64,000 nucleotides of DNA. Origin: Nanobdellota archaeon. Lineage in GTDB: Archaea; Nanobdellota; Nanobdellia; Woesearchaeales; GW2011-AR4. This document shows, piece by piece, positions 21,611 to 33,802 of this stretch (position 1 is its first letter; the number at the start of each line of letters is the position of its first letter). The stretch spans positions 32,001-96,000 of the forward strand of contig JBBSWH010000011.1 in NCBI GenBank assembly GCA_038046385.1, in the 5' to 3' direction. The translations under genes and the position numbers were made by a program. Under the pieces are notes generated by a model. That model was given only the letters and a program-made list of their open reading frames with translations, was not told the origin of the DNA and did no database searches.

Positions 21611-22330
21611 ATGAATAGGGAACTCGAAAGAAGAATTGAGGAAGCATGGCAATCTCTTTCCCCGCAGCTTAGGGCTGACGTTCAAAGAGAAGTTGGATTT
21701 AATAGGGAAGATGTTTCTGCAGAGCAATTGAGAGAGATAGTTCTTGGCTATGTCGGGCCTAAATTAATGATGGTAAAATCTGAAAGGCTTGTAAGGGAAG
21801 AAGCTGACAGAATAAGGCGTGAAGTACAGGATGAAGTAAGATCAACATTGGGAGATATGCAAAGCCAATATTCTGCTTTTTTAACTCATGTATCTTCCAT
21901 TATGGAAAACCTTGTAGCATTAAAACAAATGGAAGCAACGCGTCCAACTCAAATAGCAGCCAATCCAGTTCCTGAGCAAAAATATTTCCCGCCTTCACTT
22001 TCTTATACAAACTGCATAAGGCACCATGATCCGACTTCAGAACATCCTAAGGGTGAACCAGGTCCGGAAAGATGTGTTTTAACAATTCCACAGGAAGATG
22101 GAATACACATGAGGTGCTTAGTGGCGTATGCTTCACAGAATCCCGGTGATCAGGGATTTGCCAGATTACCTTACCAAGTATTTCACGCAGAGTTATTAAG
22201 GCAAGGGGGATGTCCAAGACCCTTGAGCAGAAGCATCAGCAGAAGGCTTCCTGTAATCAGCTACCTTTTTACTAAACCGGACATTTGTCCATTAGCTGGC
22301 GGAGAAGAGATGATTGTAGGACACAAATAA
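21611..22330 (+). CDS. Hypothetical protein
   Basis: Long ORF after TATA TTTAAATA; helical N-half, Cys/His-containing C-half. Confidence 0.65.
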   Translation: MNRELERRIEEAWQSLSPQLRADVQREVGFNREDVSAEQLREIVLGYVGPKLMMVKSERLVREEADRIRREVQDEVRSTLGDMQSQYSAFLTHVSSIMENLVALKQMEATRPTQIAANPVPEQKYFPPSLSYTNCIRHHDPTSEHPKGEPGPERCVLTIPQEDGIHMRCLVAYASQNPGDQGFARLPYQVFHAELLRQGGCPRPLSRSISRRLPVISYLFTKPDICPLAGGEEMIVGHK

Positions 22331-22331
22331 A

Positions 22332-23267
22332 ATGCCACAAGATGATTTAGAAGCAGAATTGGAAAGAGCATTTGAAGGATTTCAGGCAACTAGACTAGTT
22401 GATATTATGGGTGGAACTCATAGAAGTAATCCTACTGTAGGAAGAACACCTTTAGTTGTCCTGATAGAAGATCATTCCAATCCAAATCTTGAAAATATGA
22501 TTGCTTATTTGGAAAGAAACAAAGGCAAAATGCCTTATAGTGAGTTAGTGGATAAGCATATAGAAATAGTCAGGTATTTTACACGCATAGCTCATTTACA
22601 AATTCCCGGGGTTCAAGAATTGCGTGAACAGGAGCTTGAAGCTCTTTCATCTTTATACAAGAGACAAGAACAACAGAGAAAATTAGAAGAAGTATTAGCT
22701 ATAGACAGAGCACAATTAATACACTTAAAAGAATCTGGAATCAGAATGGACGCACTTTCTCAAATACTTTACAACCATCTCTTTGCAAATGCCGGAGAAC
22801 TGGTAAGGCCGGAAGAAAGAGATAGGCTACTTAACGATTCTTCTGTTAGACTTGCAGCATTAAGATTTTATTCAAGAGAAACAGGCGAGGGCAAAGTGGA
22901 ATCTGCAAGCGGTGATGCAGGCACTCAGCTCGTAAGGCTAAATTCAAGCGCGACAGGCCTTCAAATAAGAGGTTCTAATTTGAGAGAAAAAGTTGCCGCT
23001 TATTTAACAGTAGGATACTTCTTGGGATATTTTGAAAGGCAAATAAGCGGAATACAAGCAAAAATAGAAGACACTAAGGCAAAATATGCTCCGGTAAAAT
23101 TATCTCCTGACGAAGAGCTTAAATTGAGAGAATTCGAAAGCGGCGGGCATAAAAAATACAGCCCTTCAAGCTATTTTGCAATGTATACAAATTCTGTATG
23201 GGCGCAAGTTTTACATTTTATCAGGGAATCAAAAAAAGCTGGAGCTAACGTAAACATCAATCTTTAA
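22332..23267 (+). CDS. Hypothetical helical protein
   Basis: Long ORF, tightly coupled to neighbours. Confidence 0.65.
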   Translation: MPQDDLEAELERAFEGFQATRLVDIMGGTHRSNPTVGRTPLVVLIEDHSNPNLENMIAYLERNKGKMPYSELVDKHIEIVRYFTRIAHLQIPGVQELREQELEALSSLYKRQEQQRKLEEVLAIDRAQLIHLKESGIRMDALSQILYNHLFANAGELVRPEERDRLLNDSSVRLAALRFYSRETGEGKVESASGDAGTQLVRLNSSATGLQIRGSNLREKVAAYLTVGYFLGYFERQISGIQAKIEDTKAKYAPVKLSPDEELKLREFESGGHKKYSPSSYFAMYTNSVWAQVLHFIRESKKAGANVNINL

Positions 23268-23270
23268 AAA

Positions 23271-24665
23271 ATGGCACAGGATGACCTACTAGCAAGGCTT
23301 AACAAAGCATTTGAAGAGCAGCATCAAAGAGCTAGAGCAAGGGCTGCCAAAGAAGGAAAAAGAGAATTTACGCAGGCTGATTATGATACAAACCCAGTCG
23401 TAAAATTAGCTAAAGTTTATGATTGGTGGGGAGATATTTCCCTTTCATTGGATGAAAGAGTAAGTGATCTTGAAAAAAATTTAGGCTCACTTAATTTTTC
23501 TGCAGATAACATGCGGGCTTTCCATGCTGAATTTCCAAGGCTTCAAAATGCAGAAGACGTCAAAGATAGCCCTTACGGATTCTCAAATGACAGCATTAAT
23601 TATATACTATTTATGTGTACGTTGGGAAAAATAGCTAAGTCCAAAGGCGAATATTCTTCAGATCCAGAAATTAAGCCTTTCTTTGATTCAGGAAAGTTAA
23701 TGCCGCAATTGACTTATCTTGCAACACATACCAGCAAGCCCAGAATTAAGTTTGATGGTTTGGACACCGTAGTTCTTACAGGAATTAAATGGGGAATTTT
23801 TAATGAATTTAATCATGGAAAACTGACTATTGACTGCGCTTTGCCTAACCTTTACGGAGGAGTAGGCAACAAAATGAAAGGTGGCACTATTAGAATGACT
23901 GATAAAGTTAAACCCGACTCTTTGGGCTGGAATATGGAAGGGGGTACTTTAATTTATGATGGCGATTTTACGGGTGATGGGGGTATAGGAGAAGAAATGA
24001 AAGGCGGAACAATCCAAATTAATGGCGATGTTTATAGTGATTCTAACATTGGACATTTAATGCAACGTGGTAGCATTATAATAAATGGGAGTTATATTTA
24101 CGGCAAAAACACCGCTACTTATGGAGCAGGACACGAAATGAAAGGAGGAACTATCACAATAAAAAAAGATGCAAGAGACTGCTATCAACTTGGCTGGCAT
24201 ATGAAAGGGGGTCAACTAATAGTTGAAGGCAGCGCCTATGGTAAAATAGATGTAGGAACTTGGAGTGGGCAAGGAGCTACTATCGAAATAAAAGAAGACT
24301 GCTTAGTTAAAGAAATTGGAACCCTATTAGCAGGAGGAGAAATTAAAATAGGCGGAAATGCAGAAGTGAATATAGCATCAAGCATGGAAAGTGGCTTGAT
24401 ACGCATCAGAGGCAATGCCACCAATCAATCTGATGGGGGGTATGGATACTCTCTTGGCTGCGGCATGAAAGGGGGAGTAGTAGAAATTGGAGGAGATTTA
24501 ACAGAAATATCTAGCAGCATGGAAGGAGGAACAGTCAAAATAGGCGGAAATTTTATTTATAAGGATTCTCTTATGGGTGGCGGACAGGTTTATGAAAGAG
24601 GGGTTTTAGTACCACATTTAACTTTTTTGCGCGTAGTGGGTAAGATATTAAAGTTAATAGAATAA
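23271..24665 (+). CDS. GXGXG/FwdC-like beta-helix repeat protein
   Basis: About ten G..M.GG.I.I.G repeats. Confidence 0.8.
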   Translation: MAQDDLLARLNKAFEEQHQRARARAAKEGKREFTQADYDTNPVVKLAKVYDWWGDISLSLDERVSDLEKNLGSLNFSADNMRAFHAEFPRLQNAEDVKDSPYGFSNDSINYILFMCTLGKIAKSKGEYSSDPEIKPFFDSGKLMPQLTYLATHTSKPRIKFDGLDTVVLTGIKWGIFNEFNHGKLTIDCALPNLYGGVGNKMKGGTIRMTDKVKPDSLGWNMEGGTLIYDGDFTGDGGIGEEMKGGTIQINGDVYSDSNIGHLMQRGSIIINGSYIYGKNTATYGAGHEMKGGTITIKKDARDCYQLGWHMKGGQLIVEGSAYGKIDVGTWSGQGATIEIKEDCLVKEIGTLLAGGEIKIGGNAEVNIASSMESGLIRIRGNATNQSDGGYGYSLGCGMKGGVVEIGGDLTEISSSMEGGTVKIGGNFIYKDSLMGGGQVYERGVLVPHLTFLRVVGKILKLIE

Positions 24666-24849: not shown

Positions 24850-26958
24850 TTATCCGTGGCCTCCTTTTTTAGACCCTCCTTTTTTAGCTATTTGGTATTT
24901 GGCATGCTCTAAAACTCCGCCCGGGCCAAGAGGATCAGTAATAAATGGCCCCCCATAATGTCTTATTCCATAATCCCAACCAGGCTCTCTTTTAAGGGCA
25001 TTTCTGGCTTTTTCAAAGCTGAAATTATTTCTCATAGTAAAATCTATCAAAAATTTTGCAAGCCCTCTTGTAGATATATGTGGGAACGGATTTTCAGACC
25101 ATTTATTTATTCCATCGGTAGTTTCATAGTAAAGCATCCTCCCCCAGTGTATATAATCGTGATTTACCGCAGCCCTGTCAAAAGCTGGATTAAGGTGTGT
25201 TGGGGTCCTAATTTCGTCTCTTAAAGTTTTCTCTTCTGTTTCCATGTCATATTTTCTAGAAATTTTTTGCTCGTCTTCCGGGGTTATTTTGGAAGGATTT
25301 CCACACCCAACTATTTTTCCATCATAAACTGTTCCAATTTTCTTTTTTGCATTTTCATCTTCCCAATTATCGAAATCCGCTTCTGTGTAGTAAATTGGCC
25401 TGAACATTATTCTGGTTTTAAGGTCTTTTGTATCAATTTTATCAAATGCATCCATAGATTGAGTTGAGTTTATTCTAAACAAGCCTGCAATGATATAATC
25501 CATGCTGGATTTTGAGTGCGGATGAAAGCGCCCGTCCCTAAAATCATCCCTGTAAGCGTCTGTCTCGTTCGATATGAAACTTATCTTATCGAGAGGCTCG
25601 ACATCCCCTATACCACCATCATGCACCCATTCATCAGGAACTTTTCTTATGTATTTTTTTAAGTATTTCTCCCCATATTTTCCTTTAACATTAATTCCTT
25701 TAGTGACCTTGTTATTCCAAACTTCTTCTCCCCCATCCTTTTCTTTTACTATTCTTATCATTCTTTCTTGCCATTTGTTCCTGCTTATCTCTGCCCACCA
25801 CCTATCTGTCAATACATACCACCCGCCATTATACTCAAAAACTTCCAGCGGCCAGTTGTTTTCATCTTTTCCGGCCTCAATTTCATCATCTCTTTTGAAG
25901 TCAGAATATTCATCCTTGAAATAAACTGCTTTCTGAATTTTTTTGCCATCTGGCCCATCAACTTTTTTTATTATATGGGGTTTTATTATTTTATAAGTAT
26001 GCGCAAACCTGATAAACATTTCTTTTGGCTTAAACTCATCGGCTAATCCTTTGCCAGCTTCTCCCTTTAATATTTCTATAATCGTGGATATAGTATCCAA
26101 TTTTTCTCCGTGGTTTAATTCTATTTCTTTAATTTCCTTAAAACTTTCCCTAAGAGTGGTCAATAATTGGGTTACAGGAGTTCTAATATTTGCCCCCATT
26201 CCAGAAGAAGAAGCGAAGTGGTCTGCTCTCGCCAATATAATTTCAAATTGAGTGGATACCTTCTCCATTTTAGAAGCACCAATTGCAACAATACTTTGCG
26301 GCCTGCCGTCTGTGAATGGAACAACTACGGGATTTGTATCAATATGCGGCAAAAATCCCAATGATCCTACTAGACTTTCCTTTTCTTCCAGAATTTTTTG
26401 GGCAATTTCTAAGTTAGCTATGTCCGGATCATCTTTTTTCAAAGACCCTTCTCTTGCAATTTTTCCTTCTATTCTGTTCTTTGTTTGTTCTGCTTCTCTT
26501 ATAATCTCTAAAATCTCCTCTTCAGTCATTGCAGATTTTTTGGTAATCTCAATAGTTCCGGTTTCTTTAAAAATGCTGGCCTCTAGTTTTGCAGCTTTAC
26601 CCTCTTTGAAGTATTCTATTAACCTATATCTGTCAGTGAAAACATGATCGCCTGGTTTCTCTTTATATTCAAATCCTTCAGCTCCAAATAGCTTTTCTTC
26701 TATTTCAGTCCAATTGGCTTCAATTTCCTGCAAAACTTCTATTTTTTTGTCATTTTTTGTAAATAAATACTTATAGTTCTCCAAAAGGGGATTAATTTGA
26801 TCTGTACTTTCTTTTGTGATATCTACCATTACCCCTTCTCTTTTTCCAAATGTACTAGCCCAAATATCGTTAAGCCTGTTATGGAACCATTGATTTATTC
26901 TCTTGCCAATGGCTTGGGTTAATGTTCCTGCTTTGGTTTCTTTTGGTGGGTCTGTCAT
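24850..26958 (-). CDS. Large soluble hypothetical protein with NPAFDR domain
   Basis: 702 aa; C-terminal motifs shared with 28825..31446. Confidence 0.75.
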   Translation of the reverse strand: MTDPPKETKAGTLTQAIGKRINQWFHNRLNDIWASTFGKREGVMVDITKESTDQINPLLENYKYLFTKNDKKIEVLQEIEANWTEIEEKLFGAEGFEYKEKPGDHVFTDRYRLIEYFKEGKAAKLEASIFKETGTIEITKKSAMTEEEILEIIREAEQTKNRIEGKIAREGSLKKDDPDIANLEIAQKILEEKESLVGSLGFLPHIDTNPVVVPFTDGRPQSIVAIGASKMEKVSTQFEIILARADHFASSSGMGANIRTPVTQLLTTLRESFKEIKEIELNHGEKLDTISTIIEILKGEAGKGLADEFKPKEMFIRFAHTYKIIKPHIIKKVDGPDGKKIQKAVYFKDEYSDFKRDDEIEAGKDENNWPLEVFEYNGGWYVLTDRWWAEISRNKWQERMIRIVKEKDGGEEVWNNKVTKGINVKGKYGEKYLKKYIRKVPDEWVHDGGIGDVEPLDKISFISNETDAYRDDFRDGRFHPHSKSSMDYIIAGLFRINSTQSMDAFDKIDTKDLKTRIMFRPIYYTEADFDNWEDENAKKKIGTVYDGKIVGCGNPSKITPEDEQKISRKYDMETEEKTLRDEIRTPTHLNPAFDRAAVNHDYIHWGRMLYYETTDGINKWSENPFPHISTRGLAKFLIDFTMRNNFSFEKARNALKREPGWDYGIRHYGGPFITDPLGPGGVLEHAKYQIAKKGGSKKGGHG

Positions 26959-26966
26959 ATTCTTAC

Positions 26967-28841
26967 CTATGCTGCTCTGTCAATTAAATTATTATTCATC
27001 CCTAATCTTTTCGGCTGTAGACTTATAATCTGGGATGAAGTTTTCCCATCATCTTTGTTTGGTTGGCCATTGCCAAGAGAAGCAAATTGGTTGGGTTTCT
27101 GCGTTAAAAATACGCCAATTTGGTCAATATAATCCTTTTTCTTTGATTCAATCTGTGCAAGACACCTTGTCGTTTCCGGCATAATAACCTCGCATATGTA
27201 GGAAAGCTCATGGAGTATTCTAAGCCCGGCAATATACTTTGCTTCTATTCTCTTTTTTACTTTTACTCCTCTCTCAGCCAGTTCGAGCGATACATAGCTT
27301 CCAAAACCGCTCCTTGTTATCGCCGCCGTGCTTGAATTATCCAGTATGCTGCCATCTGTTTTGGCAGCTCCAGAAGTTTTTGCTATGAACCCTTGCCAAT
27401 CTCCCAGCCTTTTGGCAATTTCAGCCCCGGCTCTACGTTCCTTTAAGTCTTGCGTAACCTCGTCCAATAGATTTAATTTTGCCACAAGATCCGGGATTGT
27501 CAAAACCACATTTTCGGTTAAATTTTGAAATTCCATTCTTTCATTTTCTAATTTTTTAATGAGCTGTTTTTTCTTTCTGTTCAATATTCTTAAAAATAAT
27601 TCTTTGGCTTTTGTAGAAGAATCACCCTCTAGCATTAATTTTTTCAAATCAGCAAGTGCAGTAATCTTTTGCTGCTCAAGTTGCTTTATCCGCTGTTCAA
27701 AAATTTTTATAATAGTCTGCGCAGCAGGTTGCACTACTATTTCATAAGCGCGTCTTGTCAATTGCTGGTCAAGGTTCTCCAATTCATTTTCCCAGTCAAC
27801 AGGAGCCTCGTGCTTTTTTTGTTCAAAGGCCTCCAAAACTCTTGCAAATTGCTCATTTCCAAACCTTTCCCTGACCATCCTTATGTAATTCTTGCCTTTC
27901 TTCAGGTTGTTGTAAAATTCATAGAATCCTTCCCAATTCCCTTGCGTTTCCACAGAGCGCTTGATGGCGTCTCTTGCCATTGTGAAAAATTGTATTTCTT
28001 GCATGTAAGTCAAGAGCCTTTTTATTTCCGGAGTTTTTTTCATTTCACTGACGAGATTTTCATCTTTAAAATACATGCTGAATCCTAAAAAAGAGTTTCT
28101 ATCATACCTTGATCTGCCACCATTTATGAACAAAAACCCCCTTTCTATGAAAAGTTGGATACCATAAGACATTATGTATGGCCAGCTTCTTATATCGTTG
28201 GTGCACCTGTTTAATTCTTCAACTTCTCTGTCGCTCAAGGAAACTATGGCCATTCTTAATATGTCTGCAGTTGCCTTATCGTGGATTCTGTCAACTTGCT
28301 TCATCAGTTCATCATAATGGGTTTTTACATAAGCAATAACTAGTCGAGGATTTTCCAATAATTTTGCCATTGGCTGCAAAACAGTTCCTAAATCAGTTTT
28401 CCCTCTTTGTGAAAACCCTAACGACCTCATCTCTTCTGCCAACTGACTGTCTAACTGGCTTATTTGATTTATTCTTGGATTTATTTCTGAAGCAAATTTA
28501 TCATTGTCTTTCACCAAAAGATTATATGCGCTTAATCCAAGCCTTAATGCTATCCATTTTTTATTATATCTCTCTGTCAGTCCTATTCTTTTTCCGCTTG
28601 CCGCTATACTTAATGCGTTTTCTCCAGTTTCTTTATTGGCAAGAACCGATTCCCATCTTAATATTATGTCCCATCTATTGCTTATTTGCCAAAATTTGGC
28701 AAGAAACTGACTGTAACTTGCATCAAACTCTGCGAAAATGTCTCTTTCGACTTCACTCTTGGTACTTTTTCCTGCAAATATCATAGGAATCCATCCAAAA
28801 ACCCTTCTTTTGTTTTCTGTCATTTTATTTGCTATGCTCAT
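26967..28841 (-). CDS. Large helical/coiled-coil hypothetical protein
   Basis: 624 aa; overlaps the upstream gene. Confidence 0.75.
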   Translation of the reverse strand: MSIANKMTENKRRVFGWIPMIFAGKSTKSEVERDIFAEFDASYSQFLAKFWQISNRWDIILRWESVLANKETGENALSIAASGKRIGLTERYNKKWIALRLGLSAYNLLVKDNDKFASEINPRINQISQLDSQLAEEMRSLGFSQRGKTDLGTVLQPMAKLLENPRLVIAYVKTHYDELMKQVDRIHDKATADILRMAIVSLSDREVEELNRCTNDIRSWPYIMSYGIQLFIERGFLFINGGRSRYDRNSFLGFSMYFKDENLVSEMKKTPEIKRLLTYMQEIQFFTMARDAIKRSVETQGNWEGFYEFYNNLKKGKNYIRMVRERFGNEQFARVLEAFEQKKHEAPVDWENELENLDQQLTRRAYEIVVQPAAQTIIKIFEQRIKQLEQQKITALADLKKLMLEGDSSTKAKELFLRILNRKKKQLIKKLENERMEFQNLTENVVLTIPDLVAKLNLLDEVTQDLKERRAGAEIAKRLGDWQGFIAKTSGAAKTDGSILDNSSTAAITRSGFGSYVSLELAERGVKVKKRIEAKYIAGLRILHELSYICEVIMPETTRCLAQIESKKKDYIDQIGVFLTQKPNQFASLGNGQPNKDDGKTSSQIISLQPKRLGMNNNLIDRAA

Positions 28842-31446
28842 CTTTTCCTTGCTGAAGTTTTATGCCTTCATTTAGTGTACCCATTATTTCAGCTGTATCT
28901 CCCTGGGTGCCCCTATCGTATAACCCTATTTCCAGATATTTTATTACATCCTGCATATCTTCAAAATTTCTGATGGACAGTGCTGGGATATACATGCTCA
29001 TGCCTGCTGTAGAAACAGCTGGAAGCGTATCCCATTTTTTCTTATTATTCCCTACAGCTTCCCACTTGTCGTCATAATTTTTTCTTCCGGCATATTTTAA
29101 TATTCCAGTGTTAACCAATGCTCTCCTGTCAAATGCCGGGTTCTCTGTTGATTTTAAACCTGGAGTGAATTTTATTAATTTTTCATGTTCTTTATCAAGA
29201 ACAAATTTGCCTTCATAGCTGAATTTTGGCATAAATTCTTCCCTTCCCAAAAGGTTTGGATTGTCTTTTTTAGTTTCAAGCGCTTTTATATAATCACTTG
29301 CAAATTTACTGCTGTTCCTAAACCAGCCAAACCTCATGTTTCTGATAAACCCTATCCAATCATGATTTATGTACTCCATCATGCTGTGAGGAGACTCCAG
29401 CAAATGCACTTTACCGGCAATAATCTCATCAGGATGCACTCTTCTTGGCCTTTTTCCTTCATATATATCCTCTAAAACCTCAAAATATTGATTAACTTCT
29501 AGCTTGTGCCCTTTCACTATACTTCCATCTGATAATCTGGTTCCAGGATCTACGAACTTATATTCATGCGCTGTAGCTCCATAAGGATTGCATTGATCTA
29601 ATATTAGATATCTCCATGCCTTCAATACCATATGGTTGCCATAGGCTTTAGCCCTATCGTTAAGAAGTGTATTGGAATTCTTAAGAATCTCTTTTGCCTT
29701 AGCTAATTTACTATTCTGGCGCTGTATCTCCTGTATAAAATTTTCATATTCTTTAGTTCCTGGCCTTATGGACCCTTTGATAATACCAACCATATATTTT
29801 TGAATTAATATTGCAGAGTTATTCAGCTCATCACAAAATTTTTCAGTTGCCCTGAACAAACCAACCTCTTCATTTTTCCCACTTTCACTATTGTATATTA
29901 TTCCGCCATTTCTGCAAGAATAAATCTCATCTTCCAGTTTGTCAACATCCATATATATTGAACCAATCATTGGCTCCAAAGTTTCGCATACGTGCAAAGC
30001 CTGTTCGACTTGACCTTTCTTTACATTCCAGATGTAAAATCTTTTTAAGTAATTACTTAAGGAGAAAAAAATAATTAAATTTTCTCTAAATAAATCAGGC
30101 AGTCTATCTAAAGCTACTCTTTCTTTTGGCCATGCTTTTTTATTTATACCCGTTCTTGATTGTACCTCTCCTAATTTTTTTCTGAACATTTCCCATAAAA
30201 GTACTGAATATCTATCCTTTAGGTCCTTAAATTTCCATTTCCTCTCAGCCCTGTTAACAGCCCAAACCCCTCCTCCCAGCAATAATAAAAGTATCATCAG
30301 GCTTAGTATCAGGAACCATTTCCATCCTATGTCAAAGAATATTGATAGGATGATCCCTATCCCAAGAACAATAAGTCCCCAGTTGCCTATTTTATCTCCT
30401 GTTTCCCCGCCGAATTTTTTTGCAGCAAGCAGTCCTGCTATAGCGATAAGTATGAGCCACCAGTAGCTGAACATTGTTTTTGTAATTCCTTTGCTTTCCG
30501 GCCCGGTTATGCCTATTTTGCTGGCTCCTCCTCCTGCAGGGGCACAATCAATAGGGGTTATTGTGCAAAACACAGATCCAAGAGCTCCTCTGTATTCTGG
30601 AGCATCTGCCGTGACTGCTGCAGCGGCCCATCCTACAAGTATTATTGCAATAATCCATGCAGTCCATTTGCTTGCATCACCCACTGTGCTTTTTAACGCA
30701 TCTGCAAACAACATAACAAAGAAAACTTCAGCAACCTGAATAACTGCGCCAAGCGATGCACCTTCCCTTGCCATGCTTACAGCAAATACAAATGCCAAAG
30801 CATAGCTTACTTTGTCCATACCTCCGGTAGCACCTTTTAGGAGGTATCCTCTAAAGAAGAATGAGAATAAAACAAAGCTCGATATGAATACCCATATCCT
30901 GCCGTCTTTTGTGGTCAATATCCCATTCGATCCAAACAAGAAAGCAATAAAATCCTGAACCATTCCTTGGCTCCACACCCATTGATTTCCTATTTTTACG
31001 GCAATTATCAGAGCGATTATAGCCAACAATATTCCATACCCGGTTTTTCCCTGAGGCGAGCCCAGTTTATCATTTACCTTCAGCAACCCCAATACAAAAT
31101 ACAGCACAACTCCAATCACAAACGCATTAACTAAAACAACATACCAGACATAAGTTGCAAAGAACGTTCCAATTGCTCCAGTTTTCCAAATCAAGCCTTC
31201 TCTTCCGTTGAACCACGCAACCAGCAATGCAACTAAAACTATTATCATCCAGATTGATCCTTTTTCTTTGTCATTCTTGTCTGGAACAAGTATAGCCTGC
31301 AGGATAAACATTACAGCTCCGATAACTAAAGCGTTTATTATCAAATAGTACCAGGATGACATGCCAGTTGCAGCTGTCTGCGCAAATGCTAAAGGCACCA
31401 TTAGCAAAGCCATTACAAGAATCCAAAATAGTTTATTCTTGCTCAT
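28825..31446 (-). CDS. Polytopic membrane protein with C-terminal NPAFDR domain
   Basis: Signal peptide and roughly a dozen hydrophobic helices in the first ~400 aa. Confidence 0.78.
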   Translation of the reverse strand: MSKNKLFWILVMALLMVPLAFAQTAATGMSSWYYLIINALVIGAVMFILQAILVPDKNDKEKGSIWMIIVLVALLVAWFNGREGLIWKTGAIGTFFATYVWYVVLVNAFVIGVVLYFVLGLLKVNDKLGSPQGKTGYGILLAIIALIIAVKIGNQWVWSQGMVQDFIAFLFGSNGILTTKDGRIWVFISSFVLFSFFFRGYLLKGATGGMDKVSYALAFVFAVSMAREGASLGAVIQVAEVFFVMLFADALKSTVGDASKWTAWIIAIILVGWAAAAVTADAPEYRGALGSVFCTITPIDCAPAGGGASKIGITGPESKGITKTMFSYWWLILIAIAGLLAAKKFGGETGDKIGNWGLIVLGIGIILSIFFDIGWKWFLILSLMILLLLLGGGVWAVNRAERKWKFKDLKDRYSVLLWEMFRKKLGEVQSRTGINKKAWPKERVALDRLPDLFRENLIIFFSLSNYLKRFYIWNVKKGQVEQALHVCETLEPMIGSIYMDVDKLEDEIYSCRNGGIIYNSESGKNEEVGLFRATEKFCDELNNSAILIQKYMVGIIKGSIRPGTKEYENFIQEIQRQNSKLAKAKEILKNSNTLLNDRAKAYGNHMVLKAWRYLILDQCNPYGATAHEYKFVDPGTRLSDGSIVKGHKLEVNQYFEVLEDIYEGKRPRRVHPDEIIAGKVHLLESPHSMMEYINHDWIGFIRNMRFGWFRNSSKFASDYIKALETKKDNPNLLGREEFMPKFSYEGKFVLDKEHEKLIKFTPGLKSTENPAFDRRALVNTGILKYAGRKNYDDKWEAVGNNKKKWDTLPAVSTAGMSMYIPALSIRNFEDMQDVIKYLEIGLYDRGTQGDTAEIMGTLNEGIKLQQGKDEHSK

Positions 31447-32582
31447 AGTAATTTAGCGACCTCATCAAGCATTTTATCATCAATCTCATCAAACTCATAT
31501 CCAAGAGAAGTCAGTTTAATCCACAAGCGAAGCACATTATCAGTAAAGCAGAATTTGTTTCCGTTCTTGTAAATAATATCAGTCTGTATCAGCCTTTCAA
31601 TAACGCTTTTTGTAACAGGCGCGCTTCTGTAGATCTTCTTTGCAATGTCAGTTAATCTTAATTCATCGTTTGCAACAACCTTTAGGATTGTTTTAAGAAG
31701 CGTTTGACCACGAGCCCTGTTATAATAATAGTTAAGCGAGTCATTGCAGTAATTGTAAAGTGGATTGTTCTTCTGCAGAAGTTCTATCAAAAATGCCTTT
31801 CTAGAATTCTTTATTTCTCTAAACCTTTGAGAAACAGCAATCATCGCATAATAATTACCATTGCATAAATTGAATATTTCTTCGCTTGATCCGGCATCTA
31901 TCTTGCCGGCATTCTCTTCGATAAGCAAAATAGATTCCTCTTTTTCAAGATTTTTCATCTCGTAGCATTCGAACTGCTTAAGTGAATGAAGAGACTCTTT
32001 TACAGCAGAGCTTGCTGCAATATAAGAAACATTGTCTGAGCCAAAGTTAATCAAAGAAAATACATCTTTTATCTGCGAGAAATTATTCATATCAAGAAGA
32101 TTCTCTATATTGTCCCAAACAATAAGAAATTTTTTCTTTGAATCCCTTCCGAGTGCATCTGCAAACCCGAATGCATTTTCAACAATCAGTTTTTGATTTG
32201 GCTTTATCTTAAGAAGCTCGTTTTCAACTGATTTTATCAAAGAAAAAGCAGAAGAACTATTTAACTCCCCTTCGAGTTTTACAAGATTGTCAAGAACAAG
32301 AAATTTTTTGTAATCTTTAGGTGATTTTTTTAAAAAACTAAAAGCAACATTTCCTATATACTCAACCGAAAAATTCTCTGGATTAAGACTTATCTTGGAA
32401 AAATCAACATAAACAGGAACAACGTCTTTTACATTTTTGATATGGTTCTTGATAATAGACGTTTTTCCGCATTTCCTTGGACCGAGAAGAGCTATATGCT
32501 TTCCTTCATTTTTCTTAAAATTGTTTGTATTGGTGTCTAGCAAATTCCTGTAGAAACTCCTCTTTACGTTGCTGTCGACCAA
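31443..32582 (-). CDS. Archaeal-ATPase-like P-loop protein with C-terminal wHTH
   Basis: Walker A GPRKCGKT; Walker B LIVWDN; LRLTDIAKKIYRS HTH; TTG start. Confidence 0.8.
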   Translation of the reverse strand: MVDSNVKRSFYRNLLDTNTNNFKKNEGKHIALLGPRKCGKTSIIKNHIKNVKDVVPVYVDFSKISLNPENFSVEYIGNVAFSFLKKSPKDYKKFLVLDNLVKLEGELNSSSAFSLIKSVENELLKIKPNQKLIVENAFGFADALGRDSKKKFLIVWDNIENLLDMNNFSQIKDVFSLINFGSDNVSYIAASSAVKESLHSLKQFECYEMKNLEKEESILLIEENAGKIDAGSSEEIFNLCNGNYYAMIAVSQRFREIKNSRKAFLIELLQKNNPLYNYCNDSLNYYYNRARGQTLLKTILKVVANDELRLTDIAKKIYRSAPVTKSVIERLIQTDIIYKNGNKFCFTDNVLRLWIKLTSLGYEFDEIDDKMLDEVAKLL

Positions 32583-32896
32583 TACTTCTCCGTTATACCA
32601 TTTGGGCTATATACTTAATGATATAAAAACATTTCGCTTATGATTTTATACATTTTGGTATATTATTCTTAAATTAATATACCTTTTTGTATAATTAGTA
32701 TATAAATGTTACGGAAAAGAATGGGCTATAGATTTAATTCTACTAATTGGTATATATTCTTTTTGGTATACTATCTAATTTTACGAGTGATTTTTGTAAC
32801 TACTTTAAAATGATTACAAAATCGAAAGGTTTATATACACAAATCCAAACTGGAGTAGTATATTACACTACTAAGTAGCATAAACGTTGGGGCGTT

Positions 32897-33802
32897 ATGG
32901 CTGAAGAGCACAAAGAACCAAAACTAGAAGATATTGTAAAAAATAATCATAAGCTAGATAGCCACGCGTCTGAACATAAAGAAGAAGATCATGATAATCA
33001 CAAAGAAAAACCAAAAAGTTCTATTGACAAAGTAACTGATGAAGTTCTGGATGCTGGAAAATTTCTTGGGTCATTTGCAGCAGGAATGTCTTTTCCGTTC
33101 ATGTTTTCTGGTCAGGCAAGAACAAATGCAATGATTAACGCTTATCCTCTTGCAGCAGGATCAACTGTTGAGGACAAAATGAGGGGCAAGCCGATAAATC
33201 CTGTAAAATCAATGAAAGAATCACTTGTAGGAACTTTGATGGCAAACCCGCTTGCCAGTTTGCTGGGTTACATAAATGTAGTAAGGGATTCCGTTACTTC
33301 ATATGCAGGAACACTGCCGGGCGCAGGAGCTGCTGTCGGAGCGCTTGCAGCAGGCCAGGGAATTTTTGTCGGCACTTACATGGCTATTAACCACGTTGTG
33401 CAGAACATGAGCTTCAAAGGGCTTTATGACAAAATGAAGACCAGCTATTGGACTGCAATAAAAAACACATGGAAATATGTTCTTCCATTAAGCATGTGGA
33501 ACGTTCTTTATGTTTACAAGTTCGGAATAGTTGCGCAGATGGCATACGGTTCTTTGATGTCATTCCTCTTCAGATTAGTAGGTCCAAAGGAAAAAGATGC
33601 AAACCTCAAAAATTTAGGAAAAGCCCTAAACCCTGCACCCTACATCGGAGCGACTGCAAGCGTAACTGGAAAACTAGTAAAAAACACAGTCAAAGGATTT
33701 TACGATTCAATCTATGCAATAGGATCTTCTCTAGGTGATCTGTACAAATCAACGCCAAAAGCAGCAGCGCCAGCTCCGGCAGCAGCAGGAGCGCACCACT
33801 AA
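32897..33802 (+). CDS. Membrane protein, Mpv17/PMP22-like paralogue 1
   Basis: GLYDKMKTSYWTAIKNTWKYVLPLSMWNVLY; family call is by eye. Confidence 0.6.
   Translation: MAEEHKEPKLEDIVKNNHKLDSHASEHKEEDHDNHKEKPKSSIDKVTDEVLDAGKFLGSFAAGMSFPFMFSGQARTNAMINAYPLAAGSTVEDKMRGKPINPVKSMKESLVGTLMANPLASLLGYINVVRDSVTSYAGTLPGAGAAVGALAAGQGIFVGTYMAINHVVQNMSFKGLYDKMKTSYWTAIKNTWKYVLPLSMWNVLYVYKFGIVAQMAYGSLMSFLFRLVGPKEKDANLKNLGKALNPAPYIGATASVTGKLVKNTVKGFYDSIYAIGSSLGDLYKSTPKAAAPAPAAAGAHH

Follow-up and report, generated by a model that had tools for sequence, protein, structure and literature searches.

Here we describe a four-gene operon of a Nanobdellota archaeon (Woesearchaeales, GW2011-AR4) in which a polytopic membrane protein and a soluble protein are paralogues along almost the entire length of the latter, and in which the two are predicted to pair with each other through the motifs that they have in common. 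The operon occupies positions 24850-32582 of the window, by which we mean the whole 64,000-nucleotide (nt) stretch of DNA analysed (positions 32,001 to 96,000 of contig JBBSWH010000011.1, assembly GCA_038046385.1). The window comes from contig C11, one of the 19 contigs of a 1.28-Mb genome estimated to be 85% complete. All four genes, named A to D in the direction of transcription, lie on the minus strand: A at 31443-32582 (379 amino acids, aa), B at 28825-31446 (873 aa), C at 26967-28841 (624 aa) and D at 24850-26958 (702 aa). They are tightly packed, with an overlap of 4 nt between A and B, an overlap of 17 nt between B and C and a gap of 8 nt between C and D; these coordinates and sizes agree with those given in a preliminary description made from the sequence. 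The reading that we favour, tentatively and at a little below even chances, is that the operon encodes an autoregulated, cytoplasm-facing membrane complex, restricted to one lineage, that supports functions of the envelope or of contact with partner cells. The features from which we argue are computed ones: the paralogy of B and D, the conservation of gene order, the synteny of the locus, a palindromic operator array and the fast divergence of the products.

Results

The tail of B and protein D are paralogues

The preliminary description had listed four pairs of ordered motifs common to B and D and had taken the two proteins for paralogues. All four pairs are present in the translations, and the relationship proved to be wider than had been claimed. 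A direct BLASTP comparison of B with D gives an E value of 3e-4, with 32% identity over 71 aa. When a profile of 18 B proteins was aligned with a profile of 20 D proteins using hhalign, the orthologues having been drawn from 20 related loci, the match reached a probability of 99.6% (E 3.6e-24) over 425 columns and brought residues 412-857 of B onto residues 16-670 of D, so that the entire soluble part of B, and not only its motifs, matches D. A hidden Markov model (HMM) made from the C-termini of D proteins only matched 17 of the 18 B orthologues and one B fragment, and nothing else among 457 open reading frames (ORFs). Judged by these alignments, the tail of B (aa 412-857; 28876-30213, minus strand), which carries the motifs RFGWFRNSSKFASDYI, NPAFDRRA, YAGRKNY and LPAVSTAGM, is a membrane-tethered paralogue of almost all of D.

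D itself falls into two parts. Its N-terminal half (aa 1-304; 26047-26958, minus strand) is made mainly of long helices with small sheets and includes a helical hairpin at about aa 116-299, and its C-terminal part (aa 305-702; 24853-26046, minus strand) is an alpha/beta domain, common to B, to which we refer as the NPAFDR domain. The family to which the domain of D belongs is marked by the motifs HTYK, GLDENGxPLEV, RDDxRDGR(Y/F)HPHS..DY, NPAFDR, HWGRxYY, NP(F/Y)PHxSTRG and WDYGxR. An alignment of 37 domains shows three residues to be invariant, namely D in AFD, G in WGR and G in (T/S)xG, and a further series of R, D, G, H, Y, A, F, R, Y and D positions is conserved in at least 90%. We classified 156 proteins of the family (the query copy, 15 matches from a homologue search and 140 representatives from a large cluster search): 105 are of the D type, without membrane segments, and 51 are of the B type, 29 of which have at least three membrane segments.

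Predicted pairing of B with D and orientation of the pair

Co-folding of D 305-702 with B 600-873 gave scores of 0.81, 0.52 and 0.78 (median 0.78), against 0.00 for the best of three controls, values that stand for the confidence of the model and are not a measurement. The runs had at least 35% of their contacts in common, with a predicted local distance difference test (pLDDT) value of at least 53 for the partner. When the method was calibrated, 58 of 80 solved complexes attained this mark, as did 2 of 110 mismatched pairs; these rates are approximate here, where our own alignments were used. The confident contacts involve residues 360-361, 366-368, 569-576, 587-590 and 611-615 of D and residues 652-655, 775-783 and 807-809 of B, and they map to, or next to, three elements: the GLDENG/EV..G loop, the residues on either side of NPAFDR, and the NP.P..S motif. 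The tail of B and D are therefore predicted by the model to form a heterodimer via their common motifs, and the location of the interface residues in or beside these motifs suggests that the motifs may have been kept for assembly. The preliminary description had proposed a hetero-oligomeric membrane machine, and it is for this pair, in silico, that the proposal gains support.

In a hydropathy scan, about 10-11 hydrophobic segments were counted in the membrane domain of B (aa 1-399; 30250-31446, minus strand), the N-terminus of which is signal-like; C and D were without membrane segments. A stretch rich in lysine and arginine (K/R) follows the last membrane segment of B. In 17 of the 39 loci that hold B the gene is split, and the separate tail pieces either retain a hairpin of two helices, after which 7-11 K/R occur within 30 aa, or are free of membrane segments and of a signal peptide; D is likewise without a signal peptide. 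On the strength of these three features, the tail of B and the D-type modules would be placed in the cytoplasm.

C may be a third subunit of the same complex. All complete loci have its gene between those for B and D, and the protein has a conserved core at about aa 160-400. Its matches to Pfam, the sole hints of the helical character ascribed to C in the preliminary description, were weak, of the coiled-coil type and seen in single members only. In the defence-system library PADLOC it matched Drt5 only (E 1.6e-3), over a coiled-coil-like stretch. The possibility that C is a third paralogue of B and D was examined separately and rejected (hhalign probability 0.05-0.13%).

Sequence and structure libraries do not place B, C or D

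The domain common to B and D had been put forward as an unrecognised one, and it stayed so: no search of sequence libraries or of structures placed B, C or D, and a characterised family to which the domain might map was looked for and not found. When members were scanned singly against Pfam at E <= 0.1, no family turned up in more than two proteins of any set (61 for B, 24 for C and 33 for D). NCBIfam returned no match for B or D, and in PADLOC-DB 2.0 both were without any family at E <= 1. Profile searches of the PDB gave nothing below an E value of 0.02, the best values being 0.2 for the domain, 0.024 for C, 0.05 for B and 0.055 for D, and 0.22 when P0001 alone was used. D was modelled at full length (33 sequences; pLDDT 86.0, predicted template-modelling score, pTM, 0.78) and, with confidence, for residues 305-702 (90 sequences; pLDDT 94.1, pTM 0.90); structure searches with both models returned no structural neighbour, a missing match not being proof of a new fold. 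The hairpin at aa 116-299 of D had generic helical-hairpin matches only, proteins of the WXG100/EsxA type having been compared, and searches of the ESM Atlas with D and with the membrane part of B gave feature scores of 0.76-0.80 with template-modelling scores (TM-scores) of at most 0.27, and were uninformative. The named relatives of the operon proteins are hypothetical proteins labelled 'Candidatus Woesearchaeota archaeon'. No description of the operon was found in the literature searched; the families may be listed, without being described, in the supplementary tables of PMC8204110.

A conserved chromosomal locus with fast-evolving products

Searched against 1.84 billion cluster representatives, the domain profile matched 348 proteins at E <= 1e-3, 328 of them at E <= 1e-10, and among the best 150 matches every protein of at least 500 aa has the domain at its C-terminal end. 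In an even sample of the phylum, the domain was present in 10 of 401 genomes, all of them in the order to which the window belongs. Within the genus, D homologues were found in 19 of 24 other genomes, the five genomes without D being 62-89% complete, and a gene missing from an incomplete genome need not be absent from the organism. When 185,579 species genomes were scanned with a pattern, which recovers only those D proteins that keep the RDDxRDGR motif, 47 loci were obtained, with record titles of Woesearchaeota (22), Nanoarchaeota (7), Nanoarchaeia (3), 'archaeon' (1) and 'uncultured Methanosarcinales archaeon' (14). This last title is odd for the gene content of the loci that bear it (L038, L044, L045, L048, L051, L054, L060, L066, L067, L071, L072, L075, L076 and L077). 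Among viral contigs there were 52 pattern matches, none of which was a relative.

The four genes do occur together elsewhere: A, B, C and D are colinear in 28 of the 47 species-level loci, with B in one piece in 16 of these and split in 12. A further 13 of the 47 are cut by the end of a contig, and in another three the C profile fails over a gap as long as a gene. D varies in length from about 550 to 1100 aa. In this genome the operon is single-copy, and the same neighbourhood, continuing with proC, proA, proB and a gene of the PAC2 family, is found in at least nine related loci. Compared with the window, A is 56-69% identical to its orthologues in the same genus and the flanking genes are 57-78% identical, whereas B, C and D are only 21-44% identical. 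The locus looks like a core chromosomal gene set with very fast-evolving products rather than a mobile island; in our reading the module is vertically inherited, and in the genomes searched it is confined to one order of Nanoarchaeota/Woesearchaeota.

Divergence of B, C and D at such a pace, next to flanking genes that change more slowly, could reflect an arms race, and a conflict or defence module, in which the ATPase encoded by A senses or regulates while the hypervariable proteins B, C and D target viruses or competing cells, had indeed been one of the roles named in the preliminary description. The shifting architectures (the split B genes, the range of D lengths, and in sister lineages another protein, X, in the place of D) could be read in the same way, as could the weak matches of A in PADLOC, to PDC-S01 (E 8.1e-5) and mad8 (E 1.1e-3), both of which involve the P-loop only. 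However, defence systems are usually patchy and island-borne, whereas this locus is present once and, throughout the genus, keeps its chromosomal position amid housekeeping genes, which is the opposite of an island pattern; moreover, B and D have no PADLOC match, C has only the one to Drt5, and nuclease, protease, pore or other effector domains were not found in the library scans of A to D. A defence role was therefore not borne out, and we consider it unlikely.

A putative regulator and its palindrome array

Gene A starts with a TTG codon preceded by GGAG. Sequence and profile matches mark its product as a P-loop ATPase of the AAA+ type, distantly related to the 'archaeal ATPase' (PF01637) group and with a winged helix-turn-helix at its C-terminal end. 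The Walker A motif GPRKCGKTS (aa 34-42; 32457-32483, minus strand) satisfies the P-loop pattern GxxxxGK[ST] and is kept in all close orthologues that cover the region, and the winged helix (about aa 297-353; 31524-31694, minus strand) is nearly invariant across the order. In Pfam, AAA_14 (PF13173) scores 27.9 bits, barely above its cut-off of 27, PF01637 (ATPase_2) scores 16.9 bits, below its cut-off of 33.2, and HTH_45 gives a weak match to the winged helix (E 5.6e-4). The profile of the A family (A6) matches the PDB entry 2fna with an E value of 1.9e-8 over 268 profile positions, and 2qen with 2.9e-4. The canonical Walker B motif is hhhhDE, and at the aligned position 2fna reads VLDEAQEL, with D-E; in A, at about aa 157-162, the motif is (L/W)DN(F/I)EN, with D-N instead of D-E, in 15 of the 15 close orthologues aligned. 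This substitution suggests that A may hydrolyse ATP weakly or slowly and have a switch-like role.

Upstream of A, inside an AT-rich region of 314 bp, lies an array of six copies of a 16-bp palindrome, TATACC-N4-GGTATA (32594-32770, minus strand), each copy having 10-11 of the 12 specified bases. The copies flank TATA-like boxes, and the last of them stands between a TATA-like box and the start codon of A, 12 nt from the latter. The array holds six of the eight sites with at least 10/12 matches in the window and two of the eight with at least 11/12 in the genome, and it is the only cluster of four or more sites (at least 9/12) within 300 bp in the 1.28-Mb genome. The association with A is conserved: a palindrome of at least 10/12 occurs within 300 bp upstream of A in 25 of the 25 loci, out of the set of 47, that have enough upstream DNA, and one is also found upstream of A in all nine D-less loci described below, against a background rate of 0.219 sites per kb. 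The palindromes are probably an operator bound by the winged helix of A, by which A would regulate its own operon. The preliminary description, in calling A a protein with a P-loop and a winged helix, was right on both features; it had overlooked the operator array and with it the likely regulatory role of A.

Two more of the eight 11/12 palindromes of the genome are found on contig C12 (C12:47711 and 50892), one just upstream of a 911-aa ORF and the other just upstream of a 169-aa ORF that leads into a giant protein of 4415 aa with a bacterial Ig-like (Big_13) domain. These two may be chance occurrences in AT-rich spacers.

An ATPase of this kind with a conserved target could be the output of a pure signalling module, in which B would be a membrane sensor, C and D adaptors, and A a transcription factor whose ATPase state is set by the complex. 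The winged helix and the conserved array, the constant D-N in Walker B and the overlap of the A and B coding sequences all agree with such an arrangement. Yet the only clear cluster of sites is at the promoter of A itself, and a sensor that targets itself alone would have no output; furthermore, some 2200 residues of conserved partners are a great deal for adaptors. We regard a pure signalling module as quite improbable.

The array also brings to mind the origin boxes that lie beside orc1/cdc6 and the centromere repeats that lie beside partition genes, being a unique set of palindromes next to a gene for an AAA+ protein with a winged helix. It could accordingly be a centromere- or origin-like site of a DNA-handling machine, with B, C and D as a membrane tether that serves segregation or uptake of the DNA or the control of its replication, and the profile of the A family does show a weak match to ORC4 (E 0.0067, profile positions 12-70, the P-loop region). 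Nevertheless, the Cdc6/ORC families are absent among the 10 Pfam matches of A at E <= 1, A is not of the ParA type, and the last palindrome occupies, between TATA-like box and start codon, the usual place of a repressor site. Among the readings considered, DNA handling is one to which we give very little credence.

Sister operons and a suggestive link to the envelope

Homologues of A were found in 19 of the 401 sampled genomes, 10 of which are without a D-type domain, and nine such D-less loci were examined. In all nine, A is followed by B', a protein that consists of the membrane domain only and is recognised by the B HMM with E values of 1e-16 to 1e-29. After B' comes a protein recognised by the C profile in four of the nine loci and a soluble protein outside that profile in the other five, and next in line is at least one polytopic membrane protein (X). 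A domain that targets murein is carried by an X protein in four of these loci (L085, L089, L090 and L093): Glucosaminidase (E 2.4e-11), SLT (E 7.6e-5 and 2e-4), Peptidase_M23 (E 1e-12) or OmpA (E 4.5e-9).

In three of these four loci the murein-targeting domain (Glucosaminidase, SLT or OmpA) sits at about the same place, aa 235-370, and in L085 a protein of 937 aa has SLT at aa 267-337 and Peptidase_M23 at aa 848-934. The arrangement looks like domain swapping on a common membrane scaffold of X. After some of these operons come proteins of 1300-1600 aa that have FHA or metallophosphatase domains.

A-B-C-D loci, too, can have the N-terminal membrane domain of X: among the 29 with at least 3 kb of sequence beyond D, it is encoded downstream of that gene, and on its strand, in 16. 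There X is often preceded by S, a 174-aa winged-helix regulator of the MarR type; S-X pairs occur at C19:6327-9201 (L094) and in L012, L013, L017, L024, L027, L060, L075 and others. The X of this genome is a polytopic protein encoded by a 791-aa ORF (about 780 aa from the first start codon), with linkers rich in threonine and proline, and its gene is followed by one for a GT4 glycosyltransferase. Searched for murein-targeting domains, this genome has a sole SLT protein, on contig C6, M23 and Glucosaminidase were not found, and none of these lies near the operon.

The murein-targeting domains of the sister operons provide a link, suggestive only, between the operon and the envelope and bacterial cell walls. 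Such a link fits an idea put forward by Castelle et al. 2021 (PMC8204110), namely that Woesearchaeota use murein-degrading proteins on bacterial partners. The role in host contact that the preliminary description had offered among its suggestions thus finds indirect support, in that murein-targeting domains are carried by the fourth gene of the D-less sister operons; a conduit, which it had also named, is a further candidate role.

Discussion

How the complex might work

In the mechanism that we propose, B would be a polytopic membrane protein whose cytoplasmic tail pairs, through a large alpha/beta domain, with the soluble protein D; NPAFDR and the neighbouring motifs would line the contact between them and would have been kept for assembly rather than for catalysis. 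C would be a third, soluble subunit, from another family that stands by itself. A would bind the palindromes before its own gene and set the expression of the operon, probably as an ATP-dependent switch. As to its history, A and its operator, together with C and the membrane domain of B, would form the ancient core of the system. The D-type domain would have been gained later by a single subclade, which has it as a separate protein and also joined to B; sister lineages instead have, as their fourth gene, one for the second polytopic protein X, often with a murein hydrolase or murein-binding domain. Since the X proteins of the sister lineages often carry such domains, the complex would most likely serve the envelope, for example by anchoring or driving surface proteins involved in contact with partner cells.

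Several observations weigh against this picture: (i) the acidic, basic and histidine motifs that are so well conserved (RDDxRDGRYHPHS, AFD and WGR) could form an active site, which would make catalysis, and not assembly, the reason for their retention. (ii) B and D are paralogous chains, and the pose predicted for them may mirror a dimer typical of the family. (iii) Fast divergence of cytoplasmic proteins is unexpected for a housekeeping scaffold. (iv) Three of the 47 loci (L059, L069 and L078) are without a recognisable A despite at least 2.8 kb of upstream sequence. (v) In this genome X is on another contig (C19:6327-8699), beside its own MarR-type regulator, and murein domains on the X proteins that lie beside A-B-C-D operons were sought and rejected (0 of 19). 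(vi) Control of the S-X pair by the same palindrome was likewise rejected: an 11/12 site does lie upstream of S on C19, but in related loci the palindrome is upstream of S in 1 of 16 and upstream of X in 0 of 21, and the site on C19 is probably there by chance.

A bolder form of the same proposal would make the operon the membrane and cytoplasmic engine of an undescribed envelope apparatus of the Woesearchaeales, made of protein families and a fold of roughly 400 residues that occur nowhere else. An AAA+/winged-helix switch would control it through the operator array, and it would be coupled to surface-exposed membrane proteins which, in sister lineages, cut or grip bacterial murein; this would be the machinery with which these episymbionts attach to or breach their bacterial hosts. 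We think this version rather doubtful.

Why the operon matters

How DPANN archaea attach to their hosts and exploit them is presented as an open question in PMC8204110, according to which most of their lineage-specific genes have no predicted function. In a recent survey, well-folded archaeal proteins without a known fold are rare, below 0.1% of the dataset, and DPANN contributed only six final candidates (PMC13607799). A domain of about 400 residues modelled at a pLDDT of 94 and without a structural match would be one of those few, and it makes a good target for structure determination. What is new here is the operator array, the predicted heterodimer of B and D, and the sister operons with murein domains. 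Together they yield a defined unit that can be tested: four genes in a set order, a presumed regulator and its 16-bp target, a B-D heterodimer predicted down to its contact residues, and a genomic link to murein-targeting membrane proteins of sister lineages. Should the function turn out to be mundane, the value of the work would fall to the annotation of a new family for about 350 sequence clusters.

Neighbouring genes and other scans of the window

Between D and the nucleotidyltransferase and proC genes, three co-directional ORFs of 239, 311 and 464 aa occupy positions 21611-24665 on the plus strand. They are without a Pfam family and without a homologue in 36 related loci (L002-L037), and in the relatives proC or the nucleotidyltransferase gene follows D at a much shorter distance than in this genome; the trio looks like a genome-specific insertion. 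On the other side of the operon, a gene for a 301-aa protein with a weak Mpv17/PMP22 match (32897-33802, plus strand) diverges from A, the AT-rich control region being common to both. L009 has it as the divergent neighbour too, L010 has a similar gene next to the operon, and there are weaker matches in two more loci.

Rfam and transfer RNA scans of the window gave no match, and a scan for sigma-70 promoters and terminators did no better than on shuffled sequence, its model being unsuited to an archaeon. A replication origin at the palindrome array was also examined as a candidate in its own right and found unsupported, as the composition profile has no skew change beyond coding-strand effects.

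Comparison with known systems

The operon can be set beside three groups of known systems, each of which it resembles in part. As with the lineage-specific families of DPANN archaea treated in PMC8204110, the families here are restricted to these archaea, unannotated and often membrane-bound. The same paper deals with murein-hydrolase proteins of Woesearchaeota and Pacearchaeota, with which the Glucosaminidase, SLT, M23 and OmpA domains on X of the sister operons fit. The operon, the paralogy of B and D and the operator are not described in the passages of it that were consulted. The operon in the window, for its part, is without a murein domain.

In the layout of its promoter, with a palindrome between TATA-like box and start codon and several copies that look cooperative, A recalls the archaeal repressors of the MarR, TrmB and Lrp types, which bind palindromes just downstream of the TATA box. 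Unlike these, the presumed regulator is here an AAA+ protein of 379 aa and not a small winged-helix dimer, and its binding to the palindromes is putative. Finally, A has the P-loop, the overall length and the C-terminal winged helix of the 'archaeal ATPase' AAA+ proteins (PF01637 and PF13173; 2fna and 2qen). The two structures are titled 'hypothetical protein' and 'Walker-type ATPase' in the PDB, and no function is known for either. What sets A apart from that group is the D-N form of its Walker B motif, an operator array of its own, and an invariable set of partners, B and C.

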